Position numbers and translations under genes: made by a program. Below the pieces are notes generated by a model. It made no database searches. It was not told the DNA's origin and saw nothing but the letters and a program-made list of their open reading frames with translations. This document shows positions 17,406 to 36,285 of a DNA stretch of 64,000 bases, in pieces; position 1 is the stretch's first letter; every line of letters begins with the position of its first letter. Source of the DNA: an uncultured Gemmatimonadales bacterium (GTDB taxonomy: Bacteria; Gemmatimonadota; Gemmatimonadetes; Gemmatimonadales; GWC2-71-9); the NCBI GenBank assembly GCA_963739455.1, contig CAVUAK010000001.1, positions 2,208,001 to 2,272,000 of the forward strand, read 5' to 3'.

Positions 17406-17835
17406 CGTCCGTCCGTTGCACGCTGTCGTGTTCCGCGTCGGTGGCGTAGTCTGTGCGCTACCAGCAGGGGTTGTACGGGAGATCCTGCCGGCGGTCCGGG
17501 CTACCCGGGTGCCGGGGGTACCCCCGGCCATCGAAGGCCTGATCAACGTGCGGGGCGGTCTGGTGACGGTGGTGGACGGGCATGTCCTGCTGGGACAGCC
17601 GCGACCCGCGGAGCTGGAAATGGCCGTCCTGCTGCTCGACCGGGGCGGGAAGGTGGCCGGCCTGACGGTGGGTGAGGTGCTCGATTTTCTCGAAGTTCCG
17701 AGCGCTGCAGTCGCATCCCGGGAGCAGTTGCCGGGGGTCGATCCCTCCGTCGTGAAGGCGGTCGGGGAGTGGGGTGGGCGACGGTTCGTATTGCTCGATC
17801 TCGATGCGCTGCTGGCGCCGCTGCTCGGCGGCTGA
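17398..17835 (+). CDS. cheW: Chemotaxis coupling protein CheW
   Basis: VREI...TRVPGVPPAIEGLINVRGGLVTVVD...GLTVGEV. Confidence 0.88.
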   Translation: MADVRPLHAVVFRVGGVVCALPAGVVREILPAVRATRVPGVPPAIEGLINVRGGLVTVVDGHVLLGQPRPAELEMAVLLLDRGGKVAGLTVGEVLDFLEVPSAAVASREQLPGVDPSVVKAVGEWGGRRFVLLDLDALLAPLLGG

Positions 17836-17880
17836 CCAGCCCAAGCGCGCAATAAATCCGGTTCCTGTCGGAGGTGGTCC

Positions 17881-18243
17881 GTGGGGCACACCGTTCTCGT
17901 CTGTGACGACGCGATCTTCATGCGCACCATGATTGCCGATATCCTCGCGGCCGCGGGCTACGAGGTGATCGGCGAGGCGGAAACCGGCGCGCAGGCAGTC
18001 CAGAAATATCGTGAACTCAAGCCCGACCTCGTCACCATGGACATCGTGATGCCCGACATGGGCGGCATCGATGCAGTGCGCGAGATCTGCAAGGATGATC
18101 CCGACGCGAAGGTGCTGATGTGCAGCGCGATGGGACAGCAGGCGCTGGTGGTCGAGGCGATCCAGGCGGGGGCGAAGGACTTCGTGGTGAAGCCGTTCCA
18201 GCCGTCACGCGTGCTCGAGGCGGTGCAGCGCGTTCTGGGCTGA
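17881..18243 (+). CDS. cheY: Response regulator CheY (Bacillus/Thermotoga-like)
   Basis: VCDDAIFMR, PDLVTMDIVMP, CSAMGQQALV, KPF. Confidence 0.93.
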   Translation: MGHTVLVCDDAIFMRTMIADILAAAGYEVIGEAETGAQAVQKYRELKPDLVTMDIVMPDMGGIDAVREICKDDPDAKVLMCSAMGQQALVVEAIQAGAKDFVVKPFQPSRVLEAVQRVLG

Positions 18244-18248
18244 GCCCC

Positions 18249-20180
18249 ATGGATCTCGCGAAGTACGCGGCGCTCTTCGTCTCGGAAAGTCGCGAGCACC
18301 TGCAGCAGTGCAACCAGTTGTTGCTGGCGTGGGAGCGTGACCCGGAAGCAACTGCGCCGGTAGACGGACTGTTCCGCGCGGTGCATTCGCTCAAGGGCAT
18401 GGCGGCCACGATGGGGTTTGCGCCGCTGGCCGAGCTGGCGCACCGGGCCGAGAACCTGCTCGATGCGGTGCGGAGCGGGCGAGTCGCGGTGAAGCCGGAG
18501 CACTTCGAGCTGCTCTTCCGCTCGGTGGACGAGCTGGAGGATGGGGTCGCAAGGGCCACGACGGGGAAGGGTCTCCGCGCGGAAGCCGCATCGCTGGTGA
18601 AGGCGCTGGATGCGGCGGTGAAGATCGGGGACAAGCCGGCGGAGCCGGCAAAGGCGGGGAGGGCGGGGAAGGCGGGAGAAACGGCGAAGGCGGGTGAGGC
18701 TGCAAAGGCGGGGAGGGCGGGGAAGGCGGGTGACGAAGCGACTGCAGGCGCGAAAGATGAGCGGCCGTCGCTGGACGTGAAGATCACCGTCCGCTCCGAC
18801 GCGCTGCTCCGCGGTGCACGAGCACTGCTCGCGCTCAGGAAGGTGGAAGCACTCGGTGTCGTGTCCCGGGTGACGCCCCAGGTGAGCGAGCTGGAGCGCG
18901 AGGACTTCGACGGCAAGCTGGCGCTCCGCATCCGCACCGGTGCCGCGCCGTCCGAAGTCGATGCGGTGATCCGCTCGGCGGGTGACATCGCCGGGGTGGC
19001 GATCGACCTCGCCTCGGACGAGGCGACGGTCGATGCGAACGCGATGCGGCAGATCCGCATCGACCTGTCTCGCCTCGATGTGCTGATGAAGCTGGCGGGT
19101 GAACTGGTGGTGGCGCGAAACCGGCTGGTGGAGCTGGCCCGCGCATCGACGGACCCCGAGCTGGGGCAGGTGGGCGAGCGGATCTCGCGGCTGGTGGGCG
19201 CAGTCCAGTCGGAAGTGCTCGAGGCTCGGCTGACACCGGTGCGAGAAGTGTTCGACCGATTCCCCCGCGTGGTGCGCGACCTGGCCCGCGACCTGGGCCG
19301 GCAGGTGCGGCTCGAGGTGGAGGGCGGCGACATCGAACTGGATCGCGCGGTGCTCGATGAAGTGGCTGATCCGCTGGTGCACCTGGTCCGGAACGCGATC
19401 GACCACGGCATCGAGCCGCCGCGGGAGCGGGTGAAGGCGGGCAAGGCGGCCGAGGGACGGCTCCGGTTGTCGGCGTCGCGGGAACGGAACAGCGTGGCGA
19501 TCCGGGTGGCCGATGACGGCCGTGGCATCGACCGCTCGAAGATCCTGGCGAAGGCGAAGGCCGATGGGCTGGTGGACGCCGCTGCCGAATCGCTGGCCGA
19601 TGACCAGTTGCTGCGGATTCTCTCGCGCTCGGGCTTCAGCACGGCGGCGGTGGTGAGTGGTGTGTCGGGCCGTGGTGTCGGCGTGGACGTGGTGATGACG
19701 CGCATCCGGCAGCTCGGCGGGGCAGTGGAGCTGGTCAGCGAGCCAGGGCAGGGCACGGCGTTCGTGCTGCGGGTGCCGCTGACGCTGGCGATCGTGCGGT
19801 CGCTGCTGGTGCAGGTGGGCGAGGAACGGTATGTCGTGCCGCTCAACTACGTGAGCGAGACGATCGAGTTCTCGGCGACACCAATCACGGCGCTGGGCGA
19901 TCGCGAGGCATTGGTCATCAGGGAACAGCCGGTGCCCACGGTGCACCTGCACCGGCTGCTCAACATTGCGGGGGCGAGCACGACAGGGCGGCGGCCGGTG
20001 CTGGTGGTGCAGGTAGGGGAACGCCGGAGCGCGCTGGTGGTGGATGCACTGATTGGGCAGCAGGAAATCGTGGTGGAGCCGTTCGATGCGCCTCGCGGGA
20101 TGCCCGGCTGGTTCAGCGGGGCAACGATCCTCGCGGATGGCGCGCCGGCGCTGATCCTGGACGCGGCGGCGCTCGTCTGA
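18249..20180 (+). CDS. cheA: Chemotaxis histidine kinase CheA
   Basis: HPt LFRAVHSLKGMA, P2-like domain, LVHLVRNAIDHGIE, DDGRG, GFSTA..VSGRGVG, C-terminal CheW domain. Confidence 0.95.
   Translation: MDLAKYAALFVSESREHLQQCNQLLLAWERDPEATAPVDGLFRAVHSLKGMAATMGFAPLAELAHRAENLLDAVRSGRVAVKPEHFELLFRSVDELEDGVARATTGKGLRAEAASLVKALDAAVKIGDKPAEPAKAGRAGKAGETAKAGEAAKAGRAGKAGDEATAGAKDERPSLDVKITVRSDALLRGARALLALRKVEALGVVSRVTPQVSELEREDFDGKLALRIRTGAAPSEVDAVIRSAGDIAGVAIDLASDEATVDANAMRQIRIDLSRLDVLMKLAGELVVARNRLVELARASTDPELGQVGERISRLVGAVQSEVLEARLTPVREVFDRFPRVVRDLARDLGRQVRLEVEGGDIELDRAVLDEVADPLVHLVRNAIDHGIEPPRERVKAGKAAEGRLRLSASRERNSVAIRVADDGRGIDRSKILAKAKADGLVDAAAESLADDQLLRILSRSGFSTAAVVSGVSGRGVGVDVVMTRIRQLGGAVELVSEPGQGTAFVLRVPLTLAIVRSLLVQVGEERYVVPLNYVSETIEFSATPITALGDREALVIREQPVPTVHLHRLLNIAGASTTGRRPVLVVQVGERRSALVVDALIGQQEIVVEPFDAPRGMPGWFSGATILADGAPALILDAAALV
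18651..18730 (+). repeat. 9-mer-derived repeat in the CheA P1-P2 linker
   Basis: AAGGCGGGGAGGGCGGGGAAGGCGGG at both 18651 and 18705; encodes KAGRAGKAG. Confidence 0.8.
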
Positions 20181-20205
20181 CTGGGTAAGGGTTCGGGAGA
20201 GCACC

Positions 20206-20826
20206 ATGGACGATGTGCGGACACTGAAGGCGCACCAGCTCGACGCGCTGCGCGAGGTCGCCAATATTGGCGCCGGCCACGCGGCGACCGCGCTTTCCCA
20301 GATGACCAACCGCACCATCATGATCGCGGTGCCCGAGGTCAACGTGCGCCCGCTCGAGGACGTGGCGGAGCTCTTCGGCTCCGCTGACGCCGTCATCTCC
20401 GCGGTGCTGATGCACATGATGGGCGACCTCACGGGCCGCACCATGATCCTCTTCCCCACCGAGTCAGCCCGGAACCTCTGCGACATCCTGATGCGGCGCG
20501 CGCCCGGCACGACGCAGGAATTCGGGCCGATGGAGCAGTCGGGGCTCAAGGAGGTCGGCAACATCCTGGTGAGTGCGTACCTCACGGCGCTCAGCGACTT
20601 CATGGGGATGATGCTCGTGCCGTCGGTGCCCAGCCTCGTGATCGACCAGGCGGGGGCGATCCTCACCACCACCTACCTCAATTTCGGCCACGACCGCGAC
20701 TACGTCTTCTGCGTCGAGACGGCATTCCAGGTCGCTGGCGCGTCCGAGCAGCTTCACGGGCATTTCCTGCTGCTGCCCGACCTGCCCTCGCTGCGCGCCA
20801 TCTTCGACGCCATCCGCATCTCCTGA
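20206..20826 (+). CDS. cheC: CheY-P phosphatase CheC
   Basis: Two ExxN sites: DALREVANIGAGHAATALSQM and SGLKEVGNILVSAYLTALS. Confidence 0.92.
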   Translation: MDDVRTLKAHQLDALREVANIGAGHAATALSQMTNRTIMIAVPEVNVRPLEDVAELFGSADAVISAVLMHMMGDLTGRTMILFPTESARNLCDILMRRAPGTTQEFGPMEQSGLKEVGNILVSAYLTALSDFMGMMLVPSVPSLVIDQAGAILTTTYLNFGHDRDYVFCVETAFQVAGASEQLHGHFLLLPDLPSLRAIFDAIRIS

Positions 20827-20830
20827 CCCG

Positions 20831-23542
20831 ATGCCGGGTCCTGCGCCTTCCGATCGCGACCTAGCCATCCTCCGGTCGTTCGCCAGTCGCATCGACCCGT
20901 CCGACGCCGGCGCGCACAACAACCTGGGTGTCCTGTATTACCAGAAGGGGATGATCGGCGAGGCCGTCGCCGCGTTTTCGCGCGCGCTCGAGATCGACTC
21001 GCGCATGCAGGTGGCGCAGGACAACCTCGAACTGGCGTATCGAGAGAGCGGTTTCTACGATGGCCGCGTCGCCGAACTGCAGGAACGCCTGCGGCGCACT
21101 CCCGATGATCGCGAGGCGCGCTGGGAACTGGGTCGTGCATACGCCAGCCTGAGCCGGCACGACCTCGCGGCCCAGGCCTTCGAGGAACTGCTTGCCCGGG
21201 CTCCAGCCGATGTGCCCGCCCTCATTCACCTGGGACTGGCCGAGAAGGCACGCGGCCGCATCGAGGCTGCCGGCGGGTGCTTCGCCCTCGCCGCCGAGCT
21301 CGATCCAGGCAGCGCCGTCGCGCGATTCTACCAGGGCGAGACGCTGTACAATCGCGGGCTCAACGATGCGGCACTCGAGGCGCTCGAGGCCGCCATCGCG
21401 CACAATCCCGACTACGCTGAAGCGCACTACCTGCTGGCCTTTGTCTACGGCGACATGGGGCTGCACGAGCGCGCGCTCGCGGCCACGAAGCGGGCGATCG
21501 CGCTGAACCCGATGCTCTCGCGGGCGCAGGCGAATCTTTCGCTCGAGCGGCTGGTGCCCAAGGGAGAAGAGGGCGCGAAGGCGGGGAAGGCGGGGAGGGC
21601 GGGGGGTGCTGGCGTGGGGTCCGACGGCGTGCCGCTGGAGCGGGATCCGCTGGCGCACTACCAGCTCGGGCTCGCCTTCCGGCAGAAGCGCTACTTCGCC
21701 GAAGCGTTGCGCGAGTACCGGATGGCACTCGATGCAGGCGAGGATCGCTCGCTGGTACTGCAGGCAATGGCGGAAGTGCACCTGCTGCGGCGCGATCACT
21801 CGACGGCGCTGGAGCTGTACGACGAGCTGCTGCGGCAGAACCCGAAGGTGCCGAAGCTCTGGAACGAGCGCGGCGTTTGCCTGCACCAGGCGGGGCGCCG
21901 CGACGAGGCGGCGACGGCCTACGAGCACGCGATTGCCGCCGACCGTACCTACGCGCTGGCGTGGAACAATCTCGGCGTGCTGCGGGCCAGTGCCGCCGGG
22001 TCCGATACGGCAATGGCGGCCTTCCGTTCGGCGCTGGAACGGCAGCCCGGCCTGCATGCGGCGCGACTCAACCTGGCCCTGCTGCTCATGCAGAAGCGCC
22101 AGCCGCAGGCGGCACTCGAGGCCTACCGCGAGGTGCTGTCGCGCGACCACGTGAATGCGGTGGCGTGGAACGGGGTCGGCCTGGTGCTGATGGAACTCAA
22201 GCGCTACACCGATGCCCGCAACGCCTTCGGCCGCGCGGTGGAGCATGACCCCGCCCTCGCTGCAGCGCACTACAACCTGAGCTTCACGCTGGGACAGCTC
22301 GGCGACTTCGAGGGCGCGTTGCGCGAAACCAAGCGCGCGCTGGAGCTCGAGTCGTACTACGTGCCGCAGAAGTTCGCGCTGACGATCGACCTGCAGTACG
22401 AGGATCCCACGATCGCAATCGCGCCCGACGTTGCGACTGAGGTGGGACTCGAGTCGCTGGGTGGCGAGTTCGCCTTCGATCCGGGCACCCTCGACGACCT
22501 CTTCGCCGAACTGGCGCCGCCCGAGGCTCCGGTGGTGGCCGCCCGGGTCGAGGATCCCCTCACGCTGGCGCGCGATTACCTGAGCAAGGGGCTGCTCGAG
22601 CTGGCGACGGCCGAGGTGACGCGGGCGCAGGGGCGTGGCGCGGGCCGCGCCGAGGCGCAGACGCTGCTGGGCGAGATCTACGCGCGGCGAGGGCTGCACG
22701 GCGAGGCACTGGAGCGCTTCCGCACGGCGCGCGAATCGAATCCGGGCGACCGGCTCGCGGCACTGGGTGAGCTGCGCGGCCTCGTGGCGCTGGAGCGTGC
22801 CGCCGAGGGTGGCACCCTGGCCGAGCAGCTGCTGGAAGCATTCCCCCGGGATGTTGAGGTGCTGAGCGCCGTCGCGCGCGTGCGCCTGGCCATGGGTGAC
22901 GCAACGCGCGCGCTGAGTGCGGTACAGCTGGCGCAGACTCTCGCGCCCGGCCGCTCCGACCTCCTGCACCTGCAGGCGCGAGTCGCAGTGCGACTGGATG
23001 ACCGTGCCGCAGCGATCGAGGCGTGCCGTCGCGCGCTCGAACTCGACGACTCGCTGGTGCAGGTGTGGTACGAGCTCGGGCGTCTGGAGGAAGGACGCGA
23101 GGGATGGACGGCAGCGCAGGATGCCTATGCGCGCGCACTCGACATCCTTCCCACATATCTCGAGGCAGGGCTGGCGCTGGCGGACCTGCTGCGGCGCCGG
23201 ATGCAGCATCGTCCCGCGCTCGAGGTGCTGGTGGAACTGCTGACCACCGACCCGTACGCGGTGGAAGCGCTGGTGCTGCTGGGCAAGGTGCTGTTCGAGC
23301 AGGGGCGCATCGACGAGGCGCTGGAGGGCTTCGGGCGCGCGCTCCGGTTCAACCCTGAGCATCCGGCGGCACTCTTCCATTCCGGGGACGTGCTGGCGCG
23401 CAAGCGCCGCTTCGAGGATGCGGTTGATGCGTGGGACCGGGTCTCACAGATCGATCCCTCGGGGCCCTTCGCCGCGCCGGCCCGGAGCCGGGCGCGCTCG
23501 GCGCGGGATCTCCGGCACATCTTCGCCGCGCAGCCGGGCTGA
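20831..23542 (+). CDS. Large cytoplasmic TPR protein
   Basis: Many TPR repeats (AHNNLGVLYY, AWNNLGVL, AHYNLSF) in several blocks; no signal peptide apparent. Confidence 0.85.
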   Translation: MPGPAPSDRDLAILRSFASRIDPSDAGAHNNLGVLYYQKGMIGEAVAAFSRALEIDSRMQVAQDNLELAYRESGFYDGRVAELQERLRRTPDDREARWELGRAYASLSRHDLAAQAFEELLARAPADVPALIHLGLAEKARGRIEAAGGCFALAAELDPGSAVARFYQGETLYNRGLNDAALEALEAAIAHNPDYAEAHYLLAFVYGDMGLHERALAATKRAIALNPMLSRAQANLSLERLVPKGEEGAKAGKAGRAGGAGVGSDGVPLERDPLAHYQLGLAFRQKRYFAEALREYRMALDAGEDRSLVLQAMAEVHLLRRDHSTALELYDELLRQNPKVPKLWNERGVCLHQAGRRDEAATAYEHAIAADRTYALAWNNLGVLRASAAGSDTAMAAFRSALERQPGLHAARLNLALLLMQKRQPQAALEAYREVLSRDHVNAVAWNGVGLVLMELKRYTDARNAFGRAVEHDPALAAAHYNLSFTLGQLGDFEGALRETKRALELESYYVPQKFALTIDLQYEDPTIAIAPDVATEVGLESLGGEFAFDPGTLDDLFAELAPPEAPVVAARVEDPLTLARDYLSKGLLELATAEVTRAQGRGAGRAEAQTLLGEIYARRGLHGEALERFRTARESNPGDRLAALGELRGLVALERAAEGGTLAEQLLEAFPRDVEVLSAVARVRLAMGDATRALSAVQLAQTLAPGRSDLLHLQARVAVRLDDRAAAIEACRRALELDDSLVQVWYELGRLEEGREGWTAAQDAYARALDILPTYLEAGLALADLLRRRMQHRPALEVLVELLTTDPYAVEALVLLGKVLFEQGRIDEALEGFGRALRFNPEHPAALFHSGDVLARKRRFEDAVDAWDRVSQIDPSGPFAAPARSRARSARDLRHIFAAQPG

Positions 23543-23544
23543 TC

Positions 23545-24690
23545 ATGGCTATCGAGGGACCGCTCAAGGAACTGCACATCCATGATGTGTTCCAGCTGCT
23601 GGACCTGGGCCGGAAGACGGGCGTGCTGTGCGTGACCTCTGAGCTGCGGCAGAACTCGGGGATGGTCTACTTCGAGAAGGGGGCAGTGGTCGCTGCGGAG
23701 ATCCGGAGTAATCCGCATCCACTGGGCACGCTCCTGCTGCGCGCCGGCAAGATCGCCGAGGCCGACCTGGCGCGGGCGCGGGCACTGCAGGGCGCGGGTG
23801 ACGGGCGACGGCTGGGCGACATCCTGGTGGACCTCGGCGCGATGAACCGGCGCGACCTCGAGCGGCTGGTGCGCCAGCAGGTGCAGGAAGTCATCTTCGA
23901 GCTGATGAACTGGTCGGAGGGATACTTCTCCTTCGAGGAAACCACCGGGCCGCGGACGAATGCCGAGGCCAGTGTGCGGATCCCGACGGAATCGCTGCTC
24001 ATGGAAGCGGCGCGCCGGATCGACGAATGGTCACGCATCGAGGCCAAGGTGCCGCACCTGGGCGTGGTGCCGCGCTTCGCCGATGCCGACAGCCAGCACG
24101 GGATGCTCGACCTCACGCCCTTCGAGTGGGAAGTGATCGCGACGGTGGACGGAGCACGCGACCTGCGGGCCATCGCCGACAAGCTGGGGCGGGCGGAGTT
24201 CGAGATCGCCCGCACCATCTTCGGCCTCACGAGCACCGGCGTCGTCGTGCTGGATGATCCGACACTGGTTGCCACCGGACCGGAAACCCCGGACGTGACG
24301 CAACTGGTGGTACGAGCAGAGGAGCAGCTGGCTTCGGGTGATGTCGACTCGGCGCGGCTCATCGCTACTGAAGCGACGGCGCGCTTCCCCGATCAGGCCG
24401 GCGCGCATGCGGTGCTCGGGCGCGTGCTGCTGGCGGGCGAGCACTACGCCGAGGCGGAGGAGGCATTTTTCGAGGCGCTGCGGCTCGAACCCTCGTTCGC
24501 ATCGGCGCGGCGGCTTCTCGGGACGGCGCAGGCTGCAAGCGGAAGGTTCGACGAGGCAATCGCCTCGTGGCAGCGCTGGCGGCAGCTGCCGGAGCGTTCG
24601 CCCGAGGAAGTGCAGCTGCAGGACGGGGTCGATCGCCTGCAGGCCGCGGCGCGACTGCTGAGTGACGCGATCAAGGGGTGGTATGACTGA
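23545..24690 (+). CDS. DUF4388/PATAN + MshEN-like + TPR protein
   Basis: MAIEGPLKELHIHDVFQLLDLGRKTGVL...GMVYFEKG, RLGDILV motif, WSEGYFSF, SLLMEAARRIDEW, C-terminal TPRs. Confidence 0.82.
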   Translation: MAIEGPLKELHIHDVFQLLDLGRKTGVLCVTSELRQNSGMVYFEKGAVVAAEIRSNPHPLGTLLLRAGKIAEADLARARALQGAGDGRRLGDILVDLGAMNRRDLERLVRQQVQEVIFELMNWSEGYFSFEETTGPRTNAEASVRIPTESLLMEAARRIDEWSRIEAKVPHLGVVPRFADADSQHGMLDLTPFEWEVIATVDGARDLRAIADKLGRAEFEIARTIFGLTSTGVVVLDDPTLVATGPETPDVTQLVVRAEEQLASGDVDSARLIATEATARFPDQAGAHAVLGRVLLAGEHYAEAEEAFFEALRLEPSFASARRLLGTAQAASGRFDEAIASWQRWRQLPERSPEEVQLQDGVDRLQAAARLLSDAIKGWYD

Positions 24691-25498
24691 CCCGATTCGC
24701 GAGCTGACAGCGCAGCTGGCGTCGGACCCGCAGAGCCTCGTCTTCCTCGAGCTGGGTGAGGCGTTGCGAAACCGGGGGCAGCCGGCGGCGGCGTACAAGG
24801 TCGCGCGCATGGGCGTGAACCGGTACCCGGAACTGGCGGCGTCGCACGACCTGCTGGCGCGGGTGCTCGCTGACCAGGGGGACCGTCACGCAGCGGCCGA
24901 GGCTTGGCGGCGCGTGCTGGAGCTGACGCCGGGGCATATCGGTGCCAACAAGGGCCTCGCCTTCCTGGCGTTCCGGGCGGGTGATCCCGAGGGCGCACTG
25001 CCGTTCCTCGAGGCGGCACTCGGTGCGGCGCCGGGAGACGAGGGTCTCGCGGTCGCCGTCGAGCGGGTGCGCACGGCACTGGATGGTGCGGCGGCGCGTG
25101 CCACAGCTGCGGCGGCAGCGAGTGAGCCGAGTGCGCTGCGCGGCGCAGAGGGGTTCGAGCCATTCGAGGATGCTCGCGGCGTCGTGCTGCTGGACACGCA
25201 GGGGCTGCGTCTCGCGGGCACGGTCAACGCGCCCGACGGAAGCGACGTCAGCGATGCGGTCGCGGCGCACCTGCAGGGCGTCTCGCGGGAGGCCGCGCGC
25301 GCGGCGCGACTGCTCGACCTGGGCGCATGGGAGAGTGTCACCGCAGAGTCGGCGGAGGGCCACCTCCTCGTCCTTCCGCCAACGCAGTCCACGGTGCTGC
25401 TCCTGCTGCGGGACGCGCGGGTGCCGGTGGGTCGTCTCGGCCTCATCGCGGAGCAGGCGGCGCGCGCGGCGCGCAGCTGGCTGGAGCGACTGGCGTGA
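24683..25498 (+). CDS. TPR + roadblock/LC7 domain protein
   Basis: N-terminal TPRs (FLELGEALR, LARVLADQGD); C-terminal GVVLLDTQGLRLAG...VGRL roadblock pattern. Confidence 0.75.
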   Translation: MTDPIRELTAQLASDPQSLVFLELGEALRNRGQPAAAYKVARMGVNRYPELAASHDLLARVLADQGDRHAAAEAWRRVLELTPGHIGANKGLAFLAFRAGDPEGALPFLEAALGAAPGDEGLAVAVERVRTALDGAAARATAAAAASEPSALRGAEGFEPFEDARGVVLLDTQGLRLAGTVNAPDGSDVSDAVAAHLQGVSREAARAARLLDLGAWESVTAESAEGHLLVLPPTQSTVLLLLRDARVPVGRLGLIAEQAARAARSWLERLA

Positions 25499-25845
25499 AG
25501 AACCTGGGTGAGACGCTCGAGCGGGTGACCCGCGTGGCGGGCATCCGGGGCGCGATGCTGGTGGCGGAGGCGGACGGTCTCGTGGTGGCCGAAGCATTGG
25601 CCGAGGGCCTCGACGGCGGGGCGGTCGCGGCGCTCGCGGCGAGCCTGACGCTCCGGCTCCGCCGCACGGCGATCAGTGCCGGGCTTGCGGTGCCGCAGGT
25701 GGTTCAGCTGCGGGCGGAGCGGGGAACGGTCCTCAGCGTGCCGGTGGGCGACGACCTGCTGCTCGTGGCAGTGGCGGAGCGCGATGCGAACCTGGGGCTC
25801 GCGCGGCTCGAGCTCCGGCAGGCGGCGGCGCAGCTCGGATCATGA
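25495..25845 (+). CDS. Roadblock/LC7 domain protein
   Basis: GIRGAMLVAEADGLVVA...ANLGLARLEL; GTG start overlaps the upstream stop. Confidence 0.82.
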   Translation: MKNLGETLERVTRVAGIRGAMLVAEADGLVVAEALAEGLDGGAVAALAASLTLRLRRTAISAGLAVPQVVQLRAERGTVLSVPVGDDLLLVAVAERDANLGLARLELRQAAAQLGS

Positions 25846-26303
25846 GGGTCATCGAGCCGTGGGTGGCCGAGCCGCTGCAGGGGTTCCTCGACGAGTCGGG
25901 TGCGCGGCTCACGCTGCTCATGACGTCAGCGGGCCAGGTGATCGCGCAGGACGGCTTCACCCGCTCGGTGGACGTCATGGCGGCGGCGGCGCTCGGGGCC
26001 GCGATCATGGCATCGACGGACGCGATCGCTGACGTGATGAGCACCGCGGCCTTCGGCGTGGTGCTGCACCAGGGGCCGAAGCAGAGCCTGGTGCTCCGCG
26101 CGTTCTGGACACCGCGCGGTCGATGGATCGGGCTGGTGGTCTTCGGGTCGGAAACGTCGGTGGGGCTGGTGCAGCTCTTCTTCCAGGAGCTGGAGCTCGC
26201 GCTGGCGAAGGCGGCGCCAGCGGAGCCGCCGACGCGGGCCGTGCTGGCGGAAAATTTCGAGCACGAACTCAACGCGAGCTTGCGCTCGCTCTTCGGGCGG
26301 TAG
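25842..26303 (+). CDS. mglB: MglB-like roadblock protein (putative GAP of MglA)
   Basis: LLMTSAGQVIAQDG..DVMAAAALGAAIMAST..VFGSETSVGLV with an acidic C-terminal helix; immediately upstream of mglA. Confidence 0.72.
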   Translation: MRVIEPWVAEPLQGFLDESGARLTLLMTSAGQVIAQDGFTRSVDVMAAAALGAAIMASTDAIADVMSTAAFGVVLHQGPKQSLVLRAFWTPRGRWIGLVVFGSETSVGLVQLFFQELELALAKAAPAEPPTRAVLAENFEHELNASLRSLFGR

Positions 26304-26306
26304 CGG

Positions 26307-26909
26307 ATGTCGCTGGTCAACTTCACTGCGCGCGAGATCACCTGCAAGATCGTCTACTATGGACCGGGCCGGTCCGGGAAGACGACCAACTTGCAGTACA
26401 TCTTCGGCCGGGTGCCGGACACGCGGCGCGGGCGGATGGTGTCGCTGGCCACGCAGGGTGACCGGACGCTGTTCTTCGACTTCCTTCCCATCGACCTGGG
26501 GAGCATCTCGGGGTTCCAGACCAAGTTCCAGCTGTACACCGTGCCGGGGCAGAGCTACTACAACGCGACGCGGAAGCTGGTGCTGCAGGGGGCCGACGGC
26601 ATCGTCTTCGTGGCCGACAGCCAGGCGCGGCGCTTCGACGACAACCTGGAGAGCCTGCAGAACCTGCAGGAAAACCTGCTGAGCCAGGGCGTGGATGTGC
26701 GGACGATGCCGATCGCGTTCCAGTACAACAAGCAGGACCTGCCGGGCGAGCTGGTGCTGCAGCCGTCGGAGCTGGATGACTCGCTCAATTTCCGCGGGGT
26801 GCCGAGCTTCGGTGCCGACGCGCTGCATGGCAGCGGCGTGTTCGAGACGCTGAAGGGGATCTCCGAGCTCGTGCTGCGCAAGCTGGCTGCGGGAGGGATT
26901 GCCGAATGA
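26307..26909 (+). CDS. mglA: Small Ras-like GTPase MglA
   Basis: KIVYYGPGRSGKTTNL, DRTLFFDF, QLYTVPGQ, NKQD. Confidence 0.95.
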   Translation: MSLVNFTAREITCKIVYYGPGRSGKTTNLQYIFGRVPDTRRGRMVSLATQGDRTLFFDFLPIDLGSISGFQTKFQLYTVPGQSYYNATRKLVLQGADGIVFVADSQARRFDDNLESLQNLQENLLSQGVDVRTMPIAFQYNKQDLPGELVLQPSELDDSLNFRGVPSFGADALHGSGVFETLKGISELVLRKLAAGGIAE

Positions 26910-29147
26910 GCATGCTGCAGGGCGCGCACCGATTCGATGCACTGGTGGTGGGCACGGCCAACCGCACCGCGGTGACGGCCGGCCGCGCCGTGGCGAGTGC
27001 GCCGGGGTCGGCCTACAACCCGTTGCTCATCTACGCGCGGCCCGGCATGGGCAAGACGCACCTGCTCGGCGCCATCGCGCATGAAGTGTTCGCGGTGAAC
27101 CCGGCGGCGCGCATCGAGTTCCTGACACTGGATGAGTTCGTCGAAGGCTTCCATGTCGCCCTGTCCACCGGCCAGAGTGACCGAGTTCCGCGCGCGGTTC
27201 GGCGATGCGGACCTGCTGCTGGTGGACGACATCCAGTTCCTGAGCCGGCAACGGGAAATGCAGTCGGAACTGCTGCGGGTGCTCGACGTGATGCTGGCGG
27301 GGCAGAAGCAGGTGGTGCTCACCAGCGACCGGGCGCCCTCCGAAATCGAGTCGCTCGACGACCGGCTGCTCACGCGGTTTGCCGGGGGCCTGGTGCTCGA
27401 CATCGCCCGACCGGACTACGAGACCCGGGTCGCGATCCTGCACCGCAAGGCGGAGGAGCGCGGCGCGAGCTTCCCCGACGAGGTGCTCGAGGCGGTTGCG
27501 TCGCTCGACATCGAGAGCGTGCGTGAGCTGGTGGGCGCCGTGAACCGGCTGGTGGCATTCCAGGCGGTCAGCGAGGTGCCGATCGATGCCGCACAGGCGC
27601 GGCTGCTCATCGGCGGCCTGCAGTCGGCGGTAGCGGACGACCTGGTGGTGGAACAGGCGGAGACGCTGGAGTTCGCCGGTGTCGGCCATGGCGAGATGGC
27701 GCATGCGGGTGGCGATTCGCGCCGCCTCGTGGCCGACGCGCTTCCCGGGGTGATGCTCGGCCAGTCGGACATGCTGGGCGGCGGTCCCCTGGATGAGCTG
27801 CCCTCGCACGACGAGCCCGACGACGCGCCGCACGATTTCGGGCTGGCGGGCGAGCCGCACGAGTATGCCGACGCGCACGAGTTCTCGGAACCGGGCCCGG
27901 CGAAGCAGCAGCCGGACGAGCTGGGTGAGGGACTGGCCGAGAAGCAGGCCCTGCAGGCCGACCGCGACGAGTTCGGTGATTTCCTGTCCGACCTCGCGGC
28001 CACGCTGGCGCGGCAGGTTGATCCGTGGCGCGCGCGCGTGGGCGAGGCGATCCTGCGCTGGGAGGGCGAGGGCTTCCGCACCTACCGGCTGGAGCGGCTG
28101 CTGGAAGATCCAGAGCCACCCGATCCCGAGTCGGTGATGATCCAGTACGAAGCCGACGCGGAGCAGCTGCTCGAGCTGCGCGCCGAGGCGGAGTCGCTGG
28201 CGCCTGGCATGGCCGGCGCAGCGCAGCTCACCGATCCCGGCAACATGGCGGCGGCCGATGCCTACATGCAGCGGGTGCGCGAGGGCGCGGTGCCGCCGGC
28301 GGGGCCGGTGGAGCACTGGCTGCTCGACGACCTGATCGAGGGCCCGGGGAACCGCATGGCGGTGCGCGCGGCGCTCGCGGCGATTGCCGAGCCGGGGCAG
28401 AAGTACAACCCGATCGTGGTGGTGGGCGGTTCGGGCGTGGGCAAGACACACCTGCTGCACGGCATCGGGAACGCACTGGCGCTGGCGAGCGACGGACACG
28501 TGGCCTGCCTTGGCGCGCACGACTTCACGCAGGAGCTGATCGAGGCGATCGAGCGCGATGCCGTGGCGGCGTGGCGAAATCGCTACCGTCGCTGCTCGGC
28601 GCTGCTGCTCGACGATGTGCACCTCATCGCAGGCAAGGAGCGGACGCAGGAAGAACTGTTCCTGCTGTTCAACCTCTTCCTCGAGTCGAACCGGCAGCTC
28701 GGGTTCACCTCGGCGGTGCCGCTGGCGGAGCTGTCGGGCGTGGAGCCGCGACTGCTGACGCGCCTCGAGGGCGGGCTGGTGGTCGAGTTGCCGCCGCCCG
28801 ACCGCGAGCTCCGCCAGGAACTGGTGGAGCGGACGCTCACGAGCCGCGGCCAGGATGCGGATGCCGAGCTGGTGACGTACATCGCGTCGCGTCCCGCCGA
28901 GTCGGCGCGCGCCGTCCAGGGCTACGTGCAGCGCGTGCTGCACTCGGCCGACTCGCAGCAGGCGAAGCCGAGCGCGGCGCTGGCGCGGGAGGTGCTCGAG
29001 GGCGGCGCGCGCGTGGTGCGGAAGGGCAGCACGCCGGGCCGGTCGATCAGCGTGTCGCCCGCCTCGTCGGGTGGGGTCAAGAGCCACGAGAAGACCGTCT
29101 GGACCTGGCCCACCCTCGCCGATCGCGTGATCGAGGAGTGGAAGTAG
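26906..29147 (+). CDS. Protein with two tandem DnaA/Hda-type AAA+ domains (frameshift near 27175)
   Basis: Domain 1: YNPLLIYARPGMGKTHLL, LLVDDIQFL, TSDRAP, TRFAGGL, VREL. Domain 2: YNPIVVVGGSGVGKTHLLHGIGN, LLLDDVH, TQEELF, TRLEGGL. No DnaA domain I or IV. Confidence 0.85.
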
Positions 29148-29148
29148 C

Positions 29149-30769
29149 ATGGCGATCAAGGGGTCCCTCAAGGAAGCGAGCCTTCCCGACGTCATCCAGC
29201 TGCTCTACCTGGGGCGGCGCACCGGGTGCCTGGCGATCACCGACCGCCAGAACCTGGGCTACATCTACTTCGATGACGGGAAGATCGCGTACGCGTCGAT
29301 CGTGAACCGCCGCGACCGGCTGGGCGACATGCTGGTGCGCAGCAACCGCATCAACGCGGAGCAGCTGCGCCAGGCGATCGACCAGCAGGCGAACGACCGC
29401 GAGGTGCGCCTGGGCGAGATCCTGCTGGGGCAGGGCGCGCTCACGCGGCAGGAACTGGACGACTACATGCGCCTCCAGATCGAGGAGGCGGTCTACTACC
29501 TGTTCACGTGGACCACGGGCGCCTTCAACTTCGAGGCGGGCGTCCGTCCCGATCCGCGCGACTTCCAGGTGCAGATCAACCCCGACTGGCTCCTGCTCGA
29601 GGGCGCGCGACGGGTGGACGAGTGGAGCCTGATCGAGAAGAAGATCCCGAGCTTCGACCTGATCTTCACTGCCGACCAGGCGCGGGTCGAGGCGGCGGGC
29701 GCCCCGCTGTCGGAGCAGGAGCAACTGGTCCTCCCGCTGCTCGATGGCCGGCGCGACGTGCAGCAGGTGGTGGACGAGTCGGGCCTGGTGGAGTTCGTGG
29801 TGGGCCAGGCGCTCTACAGCCTGATCACGGCGGGTTACGCGCATCGCACCGGGTCATCGGCGACCACCATCTCGCCCCGGGTCAACGATTCGCGGGTGGA
29901 GGAGCACCGGAACCTCGGCGTCGCGTTCTACCGCACGGGCATGCTGGACGAGGCGCTGCGCGAGTTCCGGCGGGTCGCGGAACTGCGGCCGACCGAGGGC
30001 AGCGCGCCGTTCTACCTCGGGCTCATCGCGCTGCGGCAGGCCAAGTGGGAAGAGGGCGTCGAGGCGTTCAAGCTGGCGGTGGAGAAGGGCGGCCCGCGCC
30101 CGGCGGCACTGCACAACCTCGGATTCGCACTGGAGCAGCTGGGGCGGCTCGAGGAAGCAGAGGCGGCGTATGGCGACGCCACCAGCCGCGCGCGCGATGA
30201 CCACCGGATCATGCTCGGCTGGGCCATCGCGGCGCTGCAGCGGGGCGAGCACCAGGTGGCGGTGAGCCGACTGGAACGCACGCGCGAGCTGCTGGGCGAG
30301 AAGACGCCGCCGGCGGCGTGGCACTGGGCGATGGCACTGGCCCAGGCGGCGAGCGACGGCCTCGACGCGGCGCTGGAGACGGCGCGCGCGGGCGTCACGG
30401 CATACCCGGAGCAGGCGGTGCTGCGGAACAACCTGGCCGTCCTGCTGGAGCTGCGGGGCGACACCGCCGGCGCGGAGCAGATGCTGAAGCTGGCGTTCTC
30501 GTCCGACCCGGCGCTGCCGCAGGTGTCGAAGAACACCGGCGACCTGCTGTATCGAGCCGGGCGTTATGACGAGGCCTACGAGGCGTACGAACGCGCGTCG
30601 CGCGTCGCGCCCGGAGCTGGGCGACGACCTCTACTTCAAGCTGGGCAACATCGCGTACAAGCGGCGGGACACGGCGCGGGCACGCGCGAGCTGGGAGCAT
30701 GCGACGGAACTGAACCCGGGCCACCAGCTGGCCCGGGCCAACCTCGACATGCTCGCGGCGGAGGCATGA
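29149..30769 (+). CDS. DUF4388/PATAN + MshEN-like + TPR protein (frameshift near 30610)
   Basis: MAIKGSLKEASLPDVIQLLYLGRRTGCL, two RLG motifs, LLLEGARRVDEW, TPRs; the last TPR continues in ORF 30566..30769. Confidence 0.82.
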
Positions 30770-31584
30770 CGGTGCACGAGGATGCGGAGTTCGATGCCCT
30801 GGCCAAGGACCTCACGGTGCGCACGGGAGTGTCGCTGGCGGCGTACAAGCCGAAGTGCCTCCGGCGCCGGATCGCCGTGCGCATGCGGGCCTGCGGCGTG
30901 CACACGTACGACGAGTACCGCGGCGTGCTCGCGAGTACGCCGGGCGAGGTCGATCGCCTGCACGACGCCCTCACGATCAACGTCACCCGCTTCTTCCGGA
31001 ACCCGGAAACCTGGGAGGCCGTAAAGGCGAACGTGCTGCCGGGGCTGATGGCGAAAGCGGCGCCGGTGCGGGTCTGGAGTGCCGGCTGCTCGTCGGGTGA
31101 GGAGGCGCATACGCTGGCGATGCTGTGGGCCGACGGCGCCGAGCGCGCGGGCCATCCCGAGTGGCTCGACCGGCTCAGCGTCGAGGCCACGGACATCGAC
31201 CGCGAGTGCATGCTGCGGGCGCGGGCGGGGCAGTATCGCACCGACGCCTTCGTGGAGACGCCGCCCCGGCTGGTGGAGCGATGGACCCGGCCGGAGGGAG
31301 AAGGGCGCATCGTCGACGCGCGGCTCCGCGCGCGGATCCAGGTGTCCACGCTCGACCTGACCCGCGATGCGATGCCGGTGCGCCGCTTCGACCTGGTCGT
31401 CTGTCGCAATGTCGTGATCTACTTCGACCGGATTACGCAGGAACGACTGTTCGTCGCCTTCCATGATGCGCTCGTGCCGGGCGGCACCCTGATCCTCGGC
31501 AAGGTGGAAACCCTGGTCGGCCCGGCGCGCGACCTGCTCGAGCTCGTGGATGTGCGCGAGCGCATTTACCGGAGGCCGGCGTGA
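30766..31584 (+). CDS. cheR: Chemotaxis methyltransferase CheR
   Basis: TINVTRFFRN, VWSAGCSSGEE, ATDID, FDLVVCRNVVIYF; ATG overlaps the upstream TGA. Confidence 0.93.
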   Translation: MTVHEDAEFDALAKDLTVRTGVSLAAYKPKCLRRRIAVRMRACGVHTYDEYRGVLASTPGEVDRLHDALTINVTRFFRNPETWEAVKANVLPGLMAKAAPVRVWSAGCSSGEEAHTLAMLWADGAERAGHPEWLDRLSVEATDIDRECMLRARAGQYRTDAFVETPPRLVERWTRPEGEGRIVDARLRARIQVSTLDLTRDAMPVRRFDLVVCRNVVIYFDRITQERLFVAFHDALVPGGTLILGKVETLVGPARDLLELVDVRERIYRRPA

Positions 31585-32069
31585 GCGCACGGGAGATCGT
31601 CGTGCGGGTATCGGACATGGCCGTGGCCTCGGCGGACGAGGTCCTCGTCACCGTGGGCCTGGGCAGCTGCGTGGCGATCATGCTCTACGATCCGGAGACG
31701 CGGATCGGCGGGCTCGCGCACATCCTGCTGCCGTCGAAGGCGCTGACCCGGCAGTCGGACAACCCGGCCAAGTTCCCGCAGTCGGCGGTGCCGGTGCTGC
31801 TGGAGCGGATGGTGGCGGCTGGGGCGAACCCGCGGCGCATCACGGCGCGCCTGGCGGGCGGGGCGAGCATGTTCTCGCAGCTGGCACCGCCGGGCACGAT
31901 CCAGATGGGCGAGCGGAACCTCGTGTCCACGCGGCAGGCGCTGAGTGCGCACAACGTGCCGCTCACGGGTGAGGCGGTGGGGGGCGACTTCGGCCGCACG
32001 GTGCGGCTGCACTGCAAGGACGGCCGGATCGACGTGTCATCGGTCGCGCACGGTGTCCAGCACCTCTGA
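31581..32069 (+). CDS. cheD: Chemoreceptor glutamine deamidase CheD
   Basis: [37 protein letters not shown]. Confidence 0.93.
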
Positions 32070-33126
32070 GCGACGGTCGGTCCTCATCGCCGACGACAGC
32101 CCATTCTTCCGCCGCCTGCTCTCCGACATCCTGGAGCGCAGCGGGGAATTCACCGTGGTGGGCACGGCGCGGAACGGCATGGACGCGCTGCAGAAGGTGC
32201 ACCGGCTGCAGCCGGACCTGGTGCTGATGGACCTGGAGATGCCGGAGCTCGACGGGCTGGGCGCCATCGGGTACATCATGTCGGAAGCGCCGCGGCCGAT
32301 CGTGGTGGTGTCGAGCTACGCGGGCCCGGGCACCTCGGCGGCGATCCGGTCGCTGGAGCTGGGCGCGGTGGAAATCGTGGCGAAGGAGTCGGGCCGCGAT
32401 GCCGCCGACCTGGAGCGGTTCGGCGAGCGCCTGCTGGAAACACTGCGGCTCTCGGCGGGGGCCGAACTGTTCCGCCTGCCGATCCTGGCACGGCCGGCAC
32501 AGGGCGTTCCGCCAGCGGCGCTCTTCTCGCTGCCGGGCCGGGCGCGCGGCTGCGTCGCCATTGCGGCATCGACCGGCGGTCCGCGCGCGCTCGCCGAGGT
32601 GGTACCGAAGCTCTCGCCGGGACTCGGCGCCGGAGTGGTGATCGTGCAGCACATGCCACCGGGCTTCACGCGGAGCCTGGCTGAGCGACTGTCGGGGCAG
32701 AGCCAGCTCCGCGTGGTGGAGGCGGAGCACGGCACGCCATTGCTCGAGGACACCGCGTACGTCGCACCGGGAGACTGGCACATGCGCGTGGCGGCGGGGC
32801 CCGACGGCGTGCACCTGCTGCTCGATCGCGAACCGACGATGCATGGTGTCCGGCCCGCCGCCGATCCGCTCTTCCGCTCGGTGGCCGAGGTGTTCGGCGC
32901 GCGCGCGGTGGGCGTGGTGCTGACGGGACTGGGCCGCGACGGCGCGGATGGGCTCAGGCGCATCCATGAGGCGGGTGGCATCGGGATCGCGCAGGATCGC
33001 GCGAGCGCCACCATCGACGGGATGCCGGCGGCGGCGCGAGCGTCGGGCGGCGCCGATCATGTGCTCTCGGTGACGCAGGTGGCGGGACAGGTGGACGCGG
33101 AGATCCGCCGCATGCGACTCCTGTGA
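32053..33126 (+). CDS. cheB: Chemotaxis methylesterase CheB
   Basis: REC domain plus [19 protein letters not shown] catalytic triad. Confidence 0.94.
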
Positions 33127-33545
33127 GTGCCCCGGCCGGGGCGTTCCTGCTGGTGCGCGCCGGTGGTCGCAAGGTGGGGCTCGCAGTCGAGGCGGTCATC
33201 GAAGTGCGCGAGCCGGATGAGCTCGGTGCCATCCCGTCGCTCGAACCGGCACTGCGCGGGGTGACCTCGCTGCGGGGCCAGCTGATGCCGGTGCTCAACC
33301 TGGGGGCGTTGCTGGGGGGTGAACCGGGGCCGGGCCTGGTGGTGGTCGTCACGAGCCTTGGAGGGCGCCGGGTGGGGCTCGAAGTCGATGACGCGGATGT
33401 GGTGGTGAGCGCTGGCGTCGCACTGCTGAGTGCCGATGAGACGCTCCCCTGGGCCCGCGCCATCGCGGTGCTCCCGGACCAGGTGTACGTGCCGCTCCTC
33501 GACCTGGGCGCGCTGGCGGCACGACTTACGGAGGTCAGCACATGA
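33123..33545 (+). CDS. cheW: CheW-like protein
   Basis: VIEV...[24 protein letters not shown]...VGLEVD. Confidence 0.8.
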
Positions 33546-34015
33546 CGCTGCCACATGGCGATGACATCCAGCTGGTCACCTTCCGGTGCGGCGGGCATGA
33601 CTTCGCATTCGATATCCTGCAGCTGCAGCGGATCCTTCGGTACGAGGTGCCGTCACCGCTGCCGGACGCGCCCGATTTTCTCGAGGGTGTGCTGTCATAC
33701 GAGGGCGCTGCGGTGCCGGTGGTGGACCTGCGGAAGCGCCTGGGGCTGCCGGCCACTGTCACCGAAGAGACGCGGGTCATGCTGCTGGTGCTCGACGGGC
33801 ATCGCGTCGGGGTGGTGGTCGATGCCGCCCGCGAGCTGGTCCGGGTGGACAGCACCACGATCAGCGCGCCGCCGCCGATGGTCCGGGGCCTCGCCGCGCG
33901 GTACATCGCGGGCATCCTGGCGCGCCCCGAGCGCACCATCGTCATCCTGAACGCGCAGCGCCTGCTGGCCGACGACGAACGGAACGTCCTGCACCACCTG
34001 GAGATCACGACGTGA
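33542..34015 (+). CDS. cheW: CheW protein
   Basis: QLVTF..FAFDI..LPDAPDFLEGV..VPVVDLRKRLG..VGVVVD. Confidence 0.88.
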   Translation: MTLPHGDDIQLVTFRCGGHDFAFDILQLQRILRYEVPSPLPDAPDFLEGVLSYEGAAVPVVDLRKRLGLPATVTEETRVMLLVLDGHRVGVVVDAARELVRVDSTTISAPPPMVRGLAARYIAGILARPERTIVILNAQRLLADDERNVLHHLEITT

Positions 34016-34905
34016 GTGAACCGACCGGCTCCGGCCCCGATCCCTGGGTGACCGGCCTGCGCGCCACGCATGCCGACATCGCGCGACGCCTGGACGCGGC
34101 CACGACCGCCATCGACCGCGACATCCTGAAGCGCGAGATCATCTCGTTCTTCAAGCGTGTGGACGGGGCGCTCACCGACCTGACGAAGCTCAAGGAGGAG
34201 ATCCGCCTGCTCGTCAACCAGTACAAGCAGGTGGCGTCCACGGCCGACTCGGCGCAGGCGCCGCAGTTCACCGGTGCGTTCCCGGTGGTGCAGGCGGACC
34301 ACCTCGGCGCGTCGACGTACATCGAGAAGGGGTGGAGCCTCATCTCGCTGGGCGATCATGCGGGGGCGATCCAGGCGCTGCAGCGCGCGCTCCAGCTGGC
34401 GCCGGGCGATACGCAGGCGCAGTCGCTGCTGGGCTGGGCGCAAATGCTCCACGAGGATTATGACGATGCCTTGGGCACCTTCTCGCGGGTACTGATGAAG
34501 GAGCCGGCCAACTCGCTCGCCCGGATCAACGTCGGCTACATTTGCCTGAAGAAGGGGATCTTCGGCGAGGCGATCGAGCACCTGTCCAAGGCCATCCGGC
34601 TGGACAACGATCGCAAGGCCACGCTGTACGCGCACTTCTACCTGGGCCTGGTGTACCTCGAGCGGGAAATGTTCGAGGATGCGCAGTCCTTCTTCCGGAA
34701 GACGCTGCAGCTCGGGCCCAACCTCATTGAGGCCTACTTCGAACTGGGACGCGCGCAGTGGTTCGCGGGGGAACGGGACCACGCGGTGGGAACCTGGACG
34801 GAGGGGCAGAAGGCCAACCGGTTCAACCCGTGGTCAAAGCGGTGCGCGGAAATGCTGGAGCGGGCGGCGGCGGGGGAAGACATTCCGCGGGCGCTGGTTT
34901 CATAG
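34012..34905 (+). CDS. Coiled-coil + TPR protein
   Basis: N-terminal helical segment, then TPRs (ARINVGYI, AHFYLGLVY, AYFELGRA). Confidence 0.8.
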   Translation: MSEPTGSGPDPWVTGLRATHADIARRLDAATTAIDRDILKREIISFFKRVDGALTDLTKLKEEIRLLVNQYKQVASTADSAQAPQFTGAFPVVQADHLGASTYIEKGWSLISLGDHAGAIQALQRALQLAPGDTQAQSLLGWAQMLHEDYDDALGTFSRVLMKEPANSLARINVGYICLKKGIFGEAIEHLSKAIRLDNDRKATLYAHFYLGLVYLEREMFEDAQSFFRKTLQLGPNLIEAYFELGRAQWFAGERDHAVGTWTEGQKANRFNPWSKRCAEMLERAAAGEDIPRALVS

Positions 34906-34906
34906 C

Positions 34907-34993
34907 AAGGCGGGGAGGGCGGGGAGGGCGGGGATGGCGGGTCGCCCTCATGCTGCTGTTGCCCGCCTTCCCCGTCGTCCCCGCCTTACCCGC
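34907..34993. repeat. 9-mer tandem array followed by its imperfect reverse complement
   Basis: AAGGCGGGG AGGGCGGGG AGGGCGGGG ATGGCGGG ... CCCGCCTTC CCCGTCGTC CCCGCCTTA CCCGC. Confidence 0.7.
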
Positions 34994-35852: not shown

Positions 35853-35855
35853 TCT
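35827..35855 (+). promoter_or_regulatory. Putative sigma70 promoter
   Basis: TTGACC-N17-TAGTCT, upstream of ORF 35868 and tRNA-Val. Confidence 0.55.
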
Positions 35856-35867
35856 CTTACCTCTTAT

Positions 35868-36068
35868 ATGCCAGAACTGACAGCTCACAAGGTCTCGACC
35901 TCCCGCGCACGCTGGCCCCTGTCGCCGCGCAGCCTGATCGTCATTGTTGCGGCGTTGTTTGCCATCATTGCGGGGTATATGGTACTCTCGGCTGGACACG
36001 CCAGTGCGGCGGCGGTGCTGCTGGTGCTGGGGTATTGTGTGCTGCTCCCGCTCGGTATCGTCATCTAG
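35868..36068 (+). CDS. Small two-TM membrane protein (DUF3098-like)
   Basis: 66 aa with two hydrophobic helices, ending LVLGYCVLLPLGIVI. Confidence 0.6.
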   Translation: MPELTAHKVSTSRARWPLSPRSLIVIVAALFAIIAGYMVLSAGHASAAAVLLVLGYCVLLPLGIVI

Positions 36069-36141
36069 GCAAGGCCCTGGCCGGGGCAATGCCGGTGCGG
36101 TTCCGTAGCCCAGAGGTCTCGAACCGCGCCGTCCCCAATGC

Positions 36142-36216
36142 GGGCGATTAGCTCAGCCGGTTCAGAGCGCCTGCCTTACACGCAGGATGTCGGGGGTTCG
36201 AATCCCTCATCGCCCA
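36142..36216 (+). tRNA. tRNA-Val(TAC)
   Basis: GGGCGAT acceptor stem, anticodon arm CCTGC-CTTACAC-GCAGG, GGTTCGAATCC T-arm; CCA not encoded. Confidence 0.95.
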
Positions 36217-36285
36217 TATCGCGCGCCACCCCGGCGCGCTTCACTCGGCCGTTCCGGCCGGTGTTCCCGCAGGAGACATGAACGC

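Follow-up and report, generated by a model that had tools for sequence, protein, structure and literature searches.

A two-module DnaA-type ATPase as a candidate adaptor in an MglA-containing chemosensory operon of Gemmatimonadota

A gene in a chemosensory operon of an uncultured Gemmatimonadales bacterium encodes two tandem copies of domain III of DnaA, the first of which retains its catalytic residues, together with a helical segment (here called MID) and a tryptophan-proline tail. The gene lies between mglA and a DUF4388-TPR gene, and in some lineages it is reduced to two short motifs. We propose, with a probability of about 0.55 and from comparative sequence analysis, that the encoded protein is an ATP-gated adaptor of the MglA / DUF4388-TPR (PATAN) polarity branch of this operon rather than a replication protein. 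The proposal is favoured by the constancy of the two neighbours, by the reduced mini-proteins, by the conservation of the catalytic residues in module 1, and by the low frequency of FliG among genomes that carry the gene. It is also backed by a protein that carries MID and tail on a different N-terminal domain and by archaeal proteins in which domain III is fused to MID-like repeats or to DUF835.

To our knowledge, the DnaA paralogues that lack domain IV (Hda, helicase loaders, IstB) all work in DNA replication or transposition. If the proposal is correct, the protein would be an initiator ATPase put to a use other than on DNA, and it would add a component to MglA signalling. Its family has become fixed within a polarity operon in most of one bacterial class and has its helical domain in common with archaea without DnaA. 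In the open-access literature no paper on this protein was found.

Results

The gene and its reading frame

The window is the whole stretch of DNA that was analysed, 64,000 nucleotides corresponding to G000:C1:2208001-2272000. The gene begins with an ATG at 26906, which overlaps the stop of mglA, as an earlier note made from the letters alone had stated, and its end at 29147 is one base before the DUF4388-TPR gene.

26906..29147, + strand: whole gene, module 1 - linker - MID - module 2 - tail; the intact homologue has 748 aa, and there is one extra base near 27184 here
27181..27184, + strand: single extra base, probable assembly error, from same-genus loci and related-strain contigs

In the window the gene is split over two frames. 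The extra base near 27184 is absent from three same-genus loci, compared on the matching strand, and contigs of related strains leave it out in three of four runs; the frame break most probably arose in assembly. Another surplus base, near 30610 and likewise absent from related contigs, fuses the DUF4388-TPR gene to cheR, and the two are read as a single ORF of 811 aa (window 29149-31584). In addition, ftsH (window 4743-6730) changes frame twice, consistent with indel errors in the assembly. From the two extra bases and the two ftsH frame breaks it follows that the assembly is indel-prone, and the one-base insertion near 30610 together with the ftsH breaks makes a real pseudogene unlikely. A sequencing run of the same strain was sought and none was found, the best share being 0.15.

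The intact homologue P0003 (748 aa, 95% identical) stood in for the broken gene in the analyses. A script recovered both modules and the tail in a single open frame from 54 of 58 loci; among the other four, two are broken elsewhere, one is at a contig end, and one was missed by the script though both its halves share one frame. A misassembly, or two separate genes, is rejected by the intact P0003 and by these single-gene homologues.

Domain architecture

26906..27617 (end approximate), + strand: module 1 (D1), DnaA domain III with lid; catalytic motifs all kept, ssDNA-binding positions altered; spans the frameshift
27618..27956, + strand: acidic linker, predicted disordered, 8-132 aa among homologues
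27957..28313, + strand: MID, all-helical, about 120 aa, without a name in Pfam; the acidic-aromatic helix at its start survives even in the mini-proteins
28314..29006 (end approximate), + strand: module 2 (D2), DnaA domain III with lid; sensor I Asp lost; missing or truncated in many relatives
29064..29147 (start approximate), + strand: tryptophan-proline tail and last helix; present in all architectures; the last codons hold the ribosome-binding site of the next gene

Conserved blocks were defined in a core set of 51 homologues from two families, with duplicates and one unpublished genome left out, and they are module 1, the 120-aa helical MID, module 2 and the tryptophan-proline tail. PF00308 matches the window at 26918-27202 and 27174-27398 (module 1, in its two frames) and at 28314-28787 (module 2), and it is scored twice in P0003 (E 4e-90), where neither Bac_DnaA_C nor DnaA_N has a Pfam match. 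The protein begins at domain III and has no domain I. The canonical dnaA of the genome is found at G000:C1:881-882 kb as the fourth PF00308 match and the only PF08299 (domain IV) match. The earlier note had described two domain-III modules, each with Walker A, Walker B, Arg finger and sensor II, and the absence of domains I and IV, and all of this holds. It had also named what would count against it, namely homologues that are two separate genes or carry domain IV, or a genome without another dnaA in which the duplication is a misassembly; what was found are single genes (the 54 of 58 above) without domain IV, and a canonical dnaA elsewhere.

The linker has a median length of 32 aa in the 51 homologues, and its long acidic version is genus-specific, while no part of the family is better retained than MID and the tail. 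The linker, helical segment and tail of the earlier note are present, but the weight that belongs to MID and tail had been undervalued there. The AlphaFold2 model has confident domains and leaves the domain packing open (pLDDT 79.6, pTM 0.48), and MID alone has a confident predicted fold (pLDDT 88). Fold and sequence searches with MID gave no significant match, the best fold score (Z 6.4, rmsd 3.9, 96 aligned) being in the range of common helical bundles, and the Atlas gave no usable match either. The ATPase domain matches B. subtilis domain III (8bv3), with Foldseek E 1.7e-18, rmsd 1.6 Å and sequence E 3e-53. The cut-off of the DnaA equivalog TIGR00362 is passed only through the sum of the two domains, and for this reason annotation pipelines mislabel the two-module family as DnaA.

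In comparison with DnaA domain III of known structure (PF00308; 8bv3/8btg, T. maritima 2z4r, A. aeolicus 1l8q/2hcb/3r8f), the fold, Walker A and B, box VII, Arg finger and sensor II are the same. The protein differs from DnaA in having two copies of this domain, no domain I or IV and the extra MID and tail, and in being encoded in a chemosensory operon, separate from the canonical dnaA.

In 49 of 50 loci the last codons of the tail coincide with the ribosome-binding site from which the following gene is read, and the conservation of the tail may in part be due to this overlap. The tail is also kept in a second copy in G037, where no such downstream neighbour exists.

Gene neighbours

17398..34905, + strand: chemosensory operon (cheW, cheY, cheA, cheC, TPR, DUF4388-TPR, roadblocks, mglA, two-module gene, DUF4388-TPR, cheR, cheD, cheB, cheW, cheW, TPR)
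24662..26303, + strand: TPR-roadblock, roadblock and a further, presumably MglB-like gene
26307..26909, + strand: mglA-type small GTPase; its stop overlaps the start of the two-module gene
29149..30765 (end approximate), + strand: DUF4388 (PATAN-like)-TPR with MshEN-like motif; most constant neighbour; fused to cheR by the base near 30610

The first cheW and the cheY of the operon were identified by reading the translation, and the last gene of 24662..26303, which has no Pfam match, we take to be MglB-like by its position. No chemoreceptor was found inside the operon; four matches lie elsewhere in the genome.

When best matches only are counted, in 56 genomes, all 60 short loci have the DUF4388-TPR gene immediately downstream, and 59 have mglA upstream, the exception being a contig start. 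The linkage with mglA, roadblock and PATAN/TPR genes is conserved, with one exception: in G138 the full gene adjoins DUF4388-TPR and has no adjacent mglA. The tie to mglA is real, yet of the two neighbours the downstream DUF4388-TPR gene is the more tightly linked.

Three observations concern the surroundings of the gene. An MshEN-like motif, searched as a sequence pattern, has one match in each of the two DUF4388 proteins (window 23545-24690 and 29149-29500), which suggests a putative c-di-GMP input; the MshEN-like insert is absent in G031 and G035, both of them mini-protein genomes. Genes for peptidase-MA-like and TPR proteins (window 34758-38004) follow the operon in most wide loci, the reduced ones included. 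A second MglA paralogue (about 60% identical, 160 residues) is found in G000 and most of the order, and persists where the operon is missing.

A natural deletion series

To exemplify how little of the protein can be retained, consider the 20 wide loci that were picked as unusual or distant. In G031, G035 and G136 a gene of 69-73 aa stands between mglA and DUF4388-TPR; both ATPase modules are gone, and only the first helix of MID and the tail are kept. These mini-proteins come from two genera of one family only, and the G136 locus is also without cheA, cheC and roadblock genes. In G101 both modules and the first MID helix are kept and the remainder of MID is gone. In genus g31 (L069-L071) the identity of MglA is down to 36-42% and the locus has no cheR, cheD or cheB; cheA, cheC and cheY stay and the gene is intact. 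The second gene of G037 (L080:8363-10363), outside the operon, joins an Fe-hydrogenase-like N-terminal domain to MID and tail; it adjoins a gene that reads like a CRP-type regulator, with no Pfam match. The intermediate architecture, module 1-MID-tail, is that of 17 of 147 cluster representatives. A single clade of four proteins with this architecture is rejected (p-AU 0.00014), and module 2 was lost repeatedly.

The series of two modules, one and none makes the two short motifs the constant part and the ATPases optional inputs, and it points to the motifs as the first targets for mutation. In the adaptor proposal, the first MID helix and the tail would constitute a binding element, most likely for the DUF4388-TPR protein, which would relay to MglA; the element might also contact MglA directly. 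Module 1 would bind and hydrolyse ATP and join head-to-tail via its Arg finger as in DnaA, and this joining would cluster or expose the helix-tail element. Module 2 would be an optional partner module of low affinity, which supplies a second Arg finger and an oligomer surface. The output would be surface motility or polarity, probably by type IVa pili and not by flagella.

It is rather unlikely that the protein is instead a direct effector or exchange factor of MglA, with short motifs that bind MglA and an ATPase that couples the energy state to the GTPase cycle. Such a role would fit the four-base overlap between gene start and mglA stop in 38 of 49 loci (the nearest start was chosen, which favours overlaps), as well as the mglA that flanks all three mini-proteins. 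It does not fit G138, where the gene stays next to DUF4388-TPR without adjacent mglA, nor genus g31, where MglA has drifted and the gene is well conserved.

Conservation of residues in the two modules

Residues are numbered as in B. subtilis DnaA from a gap-free alignment, counts are over the 51 core homologues, and residue roles follow excerpts of PMC6669920, PMC8287927, PMC10721633 and PMC5742627. In module 1 the Walker A Lys (51/51), both Walker B Asp (51/51), the sensor I Asp (50/51), the box VII Arg (50/51), the Arg finger (47/51) and the sensor II Arg (51/51) are retained. At the ssDNA-binding position of Ile190, module 1 has His in 39/51, and Arg206 is lost. Module 2 retains Walker A (51/51), Walker B (51/51 and 50/51), box VII Arg (51/51), Arg finger (51/51) and sensor II (50/51), while its sensor I Asp is present in just 7/51, in agreement with the replacement reported in the earlier note. 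Sensor I contributes to the high nucleotide affinity of DnaA, according to the same set of excerpts. As far as residue patterns can tell, module 1 would be the active ATPase, and module 2 would bind nucleotide more weakly while its surface for oligomer and ssDNA contacts is intact. Both patterns erode in divergent members (35 sequences for module 1 and 21 for module 2), which have truncated lids and worn motifs; the Walker A Lys of module 1 is nevertheless found in 35 of the 35.

The ssDNA residues of the initiator-specific motif are changed in module 1 and largely kept in module 2: Ile/Val190 in 48/51, Lys/Arg222 in 47/51, Arg202 in 51/51, Arg206 in 49/51 and Glu228 in 51/51. Positions Ile190, Lys222, Arg202 and Glu228 contact ssDNA in B. 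subtilis DnaA, according to excerpts of PMC6669920 and PMC10721633, and archaeal domains largely keep these residues too. This surface speaks against the adaptor proposal, in which it is not needed, and it would be explained if module 2 were a sensor that binds ssDNA or RNA by the initiator-specific motif and signals through MID and tail to MglA or the pilus, for example in DNA uptake. A sensor of this kind is nonetheless unlikely: Asn187 is not retained in module 2, module 1, which is the constant module, has the His at position 190, the conservation decays in the 21 divergent module-2 sequences, the same surface also makes oligomer contacts, and module 2 is dispensable.

Distribution and output

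The phylum sample comprises 151 genomes, G000 included, of which two are unpublished. MID is present in 102 of them, and an orthologue of DUF4388-TPR in 104, which are the same 102 plus G101 and G136, where the gene has variant forms. With the queries used, the gene was not found in 45 of the 151. MID was found in none of the 15 genomes outside the class, and the family is not phylum-wide in the sample.

FliG is found in 39 of the 151 genomes and in only 26 of the 102 with MID, so that a flagellar output as the general role is rejected. PilM occurs in 142/151 (98/102 with MID and 44/49 without) and, being nearly universal, does not by its co-occurrence single out pili. In G000, which is 84% complete, PilM and ATPases of the PilB/PilT type are present and FliG had no match. 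Against the adaptor proposal stand this near-universality of PilM, the loosely defined domain packing of the model, the overlap of the tail with a ribosome-binding site, and the restriction of the mini-proteins to two genera.

The analogy for the adaptor proposal is M. xanthus MglA-SgmX (excerpts of PMC11580455; also PMC7519303 and PMC7668184). The MglA-MglB-SgmX system shares a small GTPase and roadblock and TPR proteins, acting there on type IVa pili (excerpts of PMC11580455); it differs in that those excerpts mention no DnaA-type ATPase, and in that the parts here are in one CheA/CheC/CheD-type operon. Group 1 MglA in Gemmatimonadetes, and PATAN genes near some Group 1 mglA, are described in excerpts of PMC4316618, in the main text of which 'dnaa' is not mentioned.

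Archaeal relatives

Among the 147 representatives, 18 are long proteins with 4-11 MID-like repeats. In four of these the C-terminal end is a DnaA domain III that no domain IV follows, and DUF835 is present in two. MID is aligned to the archaeal repeats by hhalign with probability 94.5% (E 7.8e-8), while 20 column shuffles reach at most 0.44% and the reversed control 0.31%. Among the best 80 genome loci listed, the top two are from Thermoplasmata / Thermoplasmatota archaeon, and the other 78 are bacterial and read as canonical dnaA. In the Atlas, a Thermoplasmatota cluster of DnaA plus DUF835 comes first and Gemmatimonadota clusters come next, as a lead only, with scores under 0.9. The archaeal assignment of contigs is based on record titles and class-wide recurrence. 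In 32 of 37 genomes of the archaeal class PF00308 is matched at E 1e-25 or better, up to eight times each, and DnaA domain IV is found in none of the 37, for which completeness is not given.

The Thermoplasmatota loci L166-L207, of the class of G176, contain expanded paralogues of DnaA domain III without domain IV. Their architectures include repeat/zinc-ribbon forms, HEAT fusions, DUF835 fusions, and short forms of 410-490 aa that begin with a hydrophobic stretch and close with an acidic helix. In excerpts of PMC5847659, DUF835 is listed among the output domains of response regulators in archaea, as a KaiC-like domain that has been inactivated. The Thermoplasmatota fusions resemble the family here in joining domain III without domain IV to MID-like units and in having Gly for the usual Trp after the Arg finger (21/24 there, 49/51 and 42/51 here). 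They differ in having about eight MID-like repeats before one ATPase domain, in their zinc ribbons or DUF835, and in the lack of a tail.

An assignment of the archaeal N-terminal domain as PATAN was not supported, its likeness to DUF4388 being not significant (probability 0.4%), and the argument from fusion for DUF4388 as the partner is therefore weak. Two of three such domains tested matched DUF2226, which we take to be akin to PATAN, with E 2e-4 and 0.025, both under the cut-off.

It appears that the ATP-binding core of DnaA has found a second use apart from DNA replication. Tentatively, and at less than even odds, the bacterial and archaeal proteins may belong to one cross-domain class of signalling DnaA ATPases, in which domain III without origin binding, combined with MID, would act as an ATP-dependent, possibly ssDNA-tuned, polymerising switch, wired to PATAN/small-GTPase pathways in Gemmatimonadota and to DUF835-type pathways in Thermoplasmatota archaea without a DnaA initiator.

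Phylogeny and the relation to replication

In a tree of domain III with narrow outgroups (one Hda, four non-Gemmatimonadota groups, E. coli), module 1 (100/99), module 2 (100/99) and the DnaA of the phylum (100/100) are each well-supported clades, from which it follows that the duplication predates the sampled lineages. Modules 1 and 2 are sisters with support 97 in a quick LG+G4 tree; under the mixture model this falls to 62/61, and a sister relation is not claimed. The data are compatible with descent of the modules from the DnaA of the phylum itself (p-AU 0.49) and do not reject a single clade of modules 1 and 2 with the archaeal ATPase domains (p-AU 0.47), with deep branches weakly placed.

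Hda is also a DnaA-clade AAA+ protein without domain IV that keeps the Arg finger. The protein here differs from it in having a canonical Walker A Lys and no N-terminal extension, in scoring 150.9 bits against the TIGR03420 cut-off of 194.8, and in a sequence similarity that is far greater to DnaA (E 1e-53) than to Hda (E 7e-6). A clamp-binding pattern is found in 0/51 homologues, in accordance with the earlier note, which had seen no obvious motif of this kind.

These comparisons bear on the idea that the protein is a trans-regulator of replication initiation, in which module 2 co-assembles with DnaA, or donates an Arg finger like Hda, and thereby ties initiation to the state of MglA. In its favour are the invariant Arg finger and box VII Arg of module 2, its equivalents of the filament-interface residues Arg202, Arg206 and Arg321 (roles from excerpts of PMC6669920), and the p-AU for an origin from the phylum's DnaA. 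The idea is quite improbable in view of the missing clamp pattern and the score below the Hda cut-off, the repeated loss of module 2, the deletion of both modules in three genomes that keep the operon core, the 45 genomes in which the queries did not find the gene, and the lack of domain IV in 37/37 genomes of the archaeal relatives. The earlier suggestion of a repurposed initiator-family ATPase that acts as switch or scaffold stands; its companion, co-assembly with DnaA that links polarity to replication, is not upheld, since the operon persists without the ATPase modules, the clamp pattern is absent and no DnaA domain IV was found in the genomes of the archaeal relatives.

Least probable is that the function lies in the short motifs alone, with the ATPase modules as no more than a passive spacer or polymer: both modules can be deleted and divergent forms have truncated lids and worn motifs, but module 1 shows hardly any variation at its catalytic residues in the core set and its Walker A Lys persists in every divergent sequence.

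On G000:C1 the cumulative GC skew is lowest near 1,008 kb, which puts it roughly 125 kb away from dnaA, and within 7 kb around dnaA there are four DnaA-box-like sites only.
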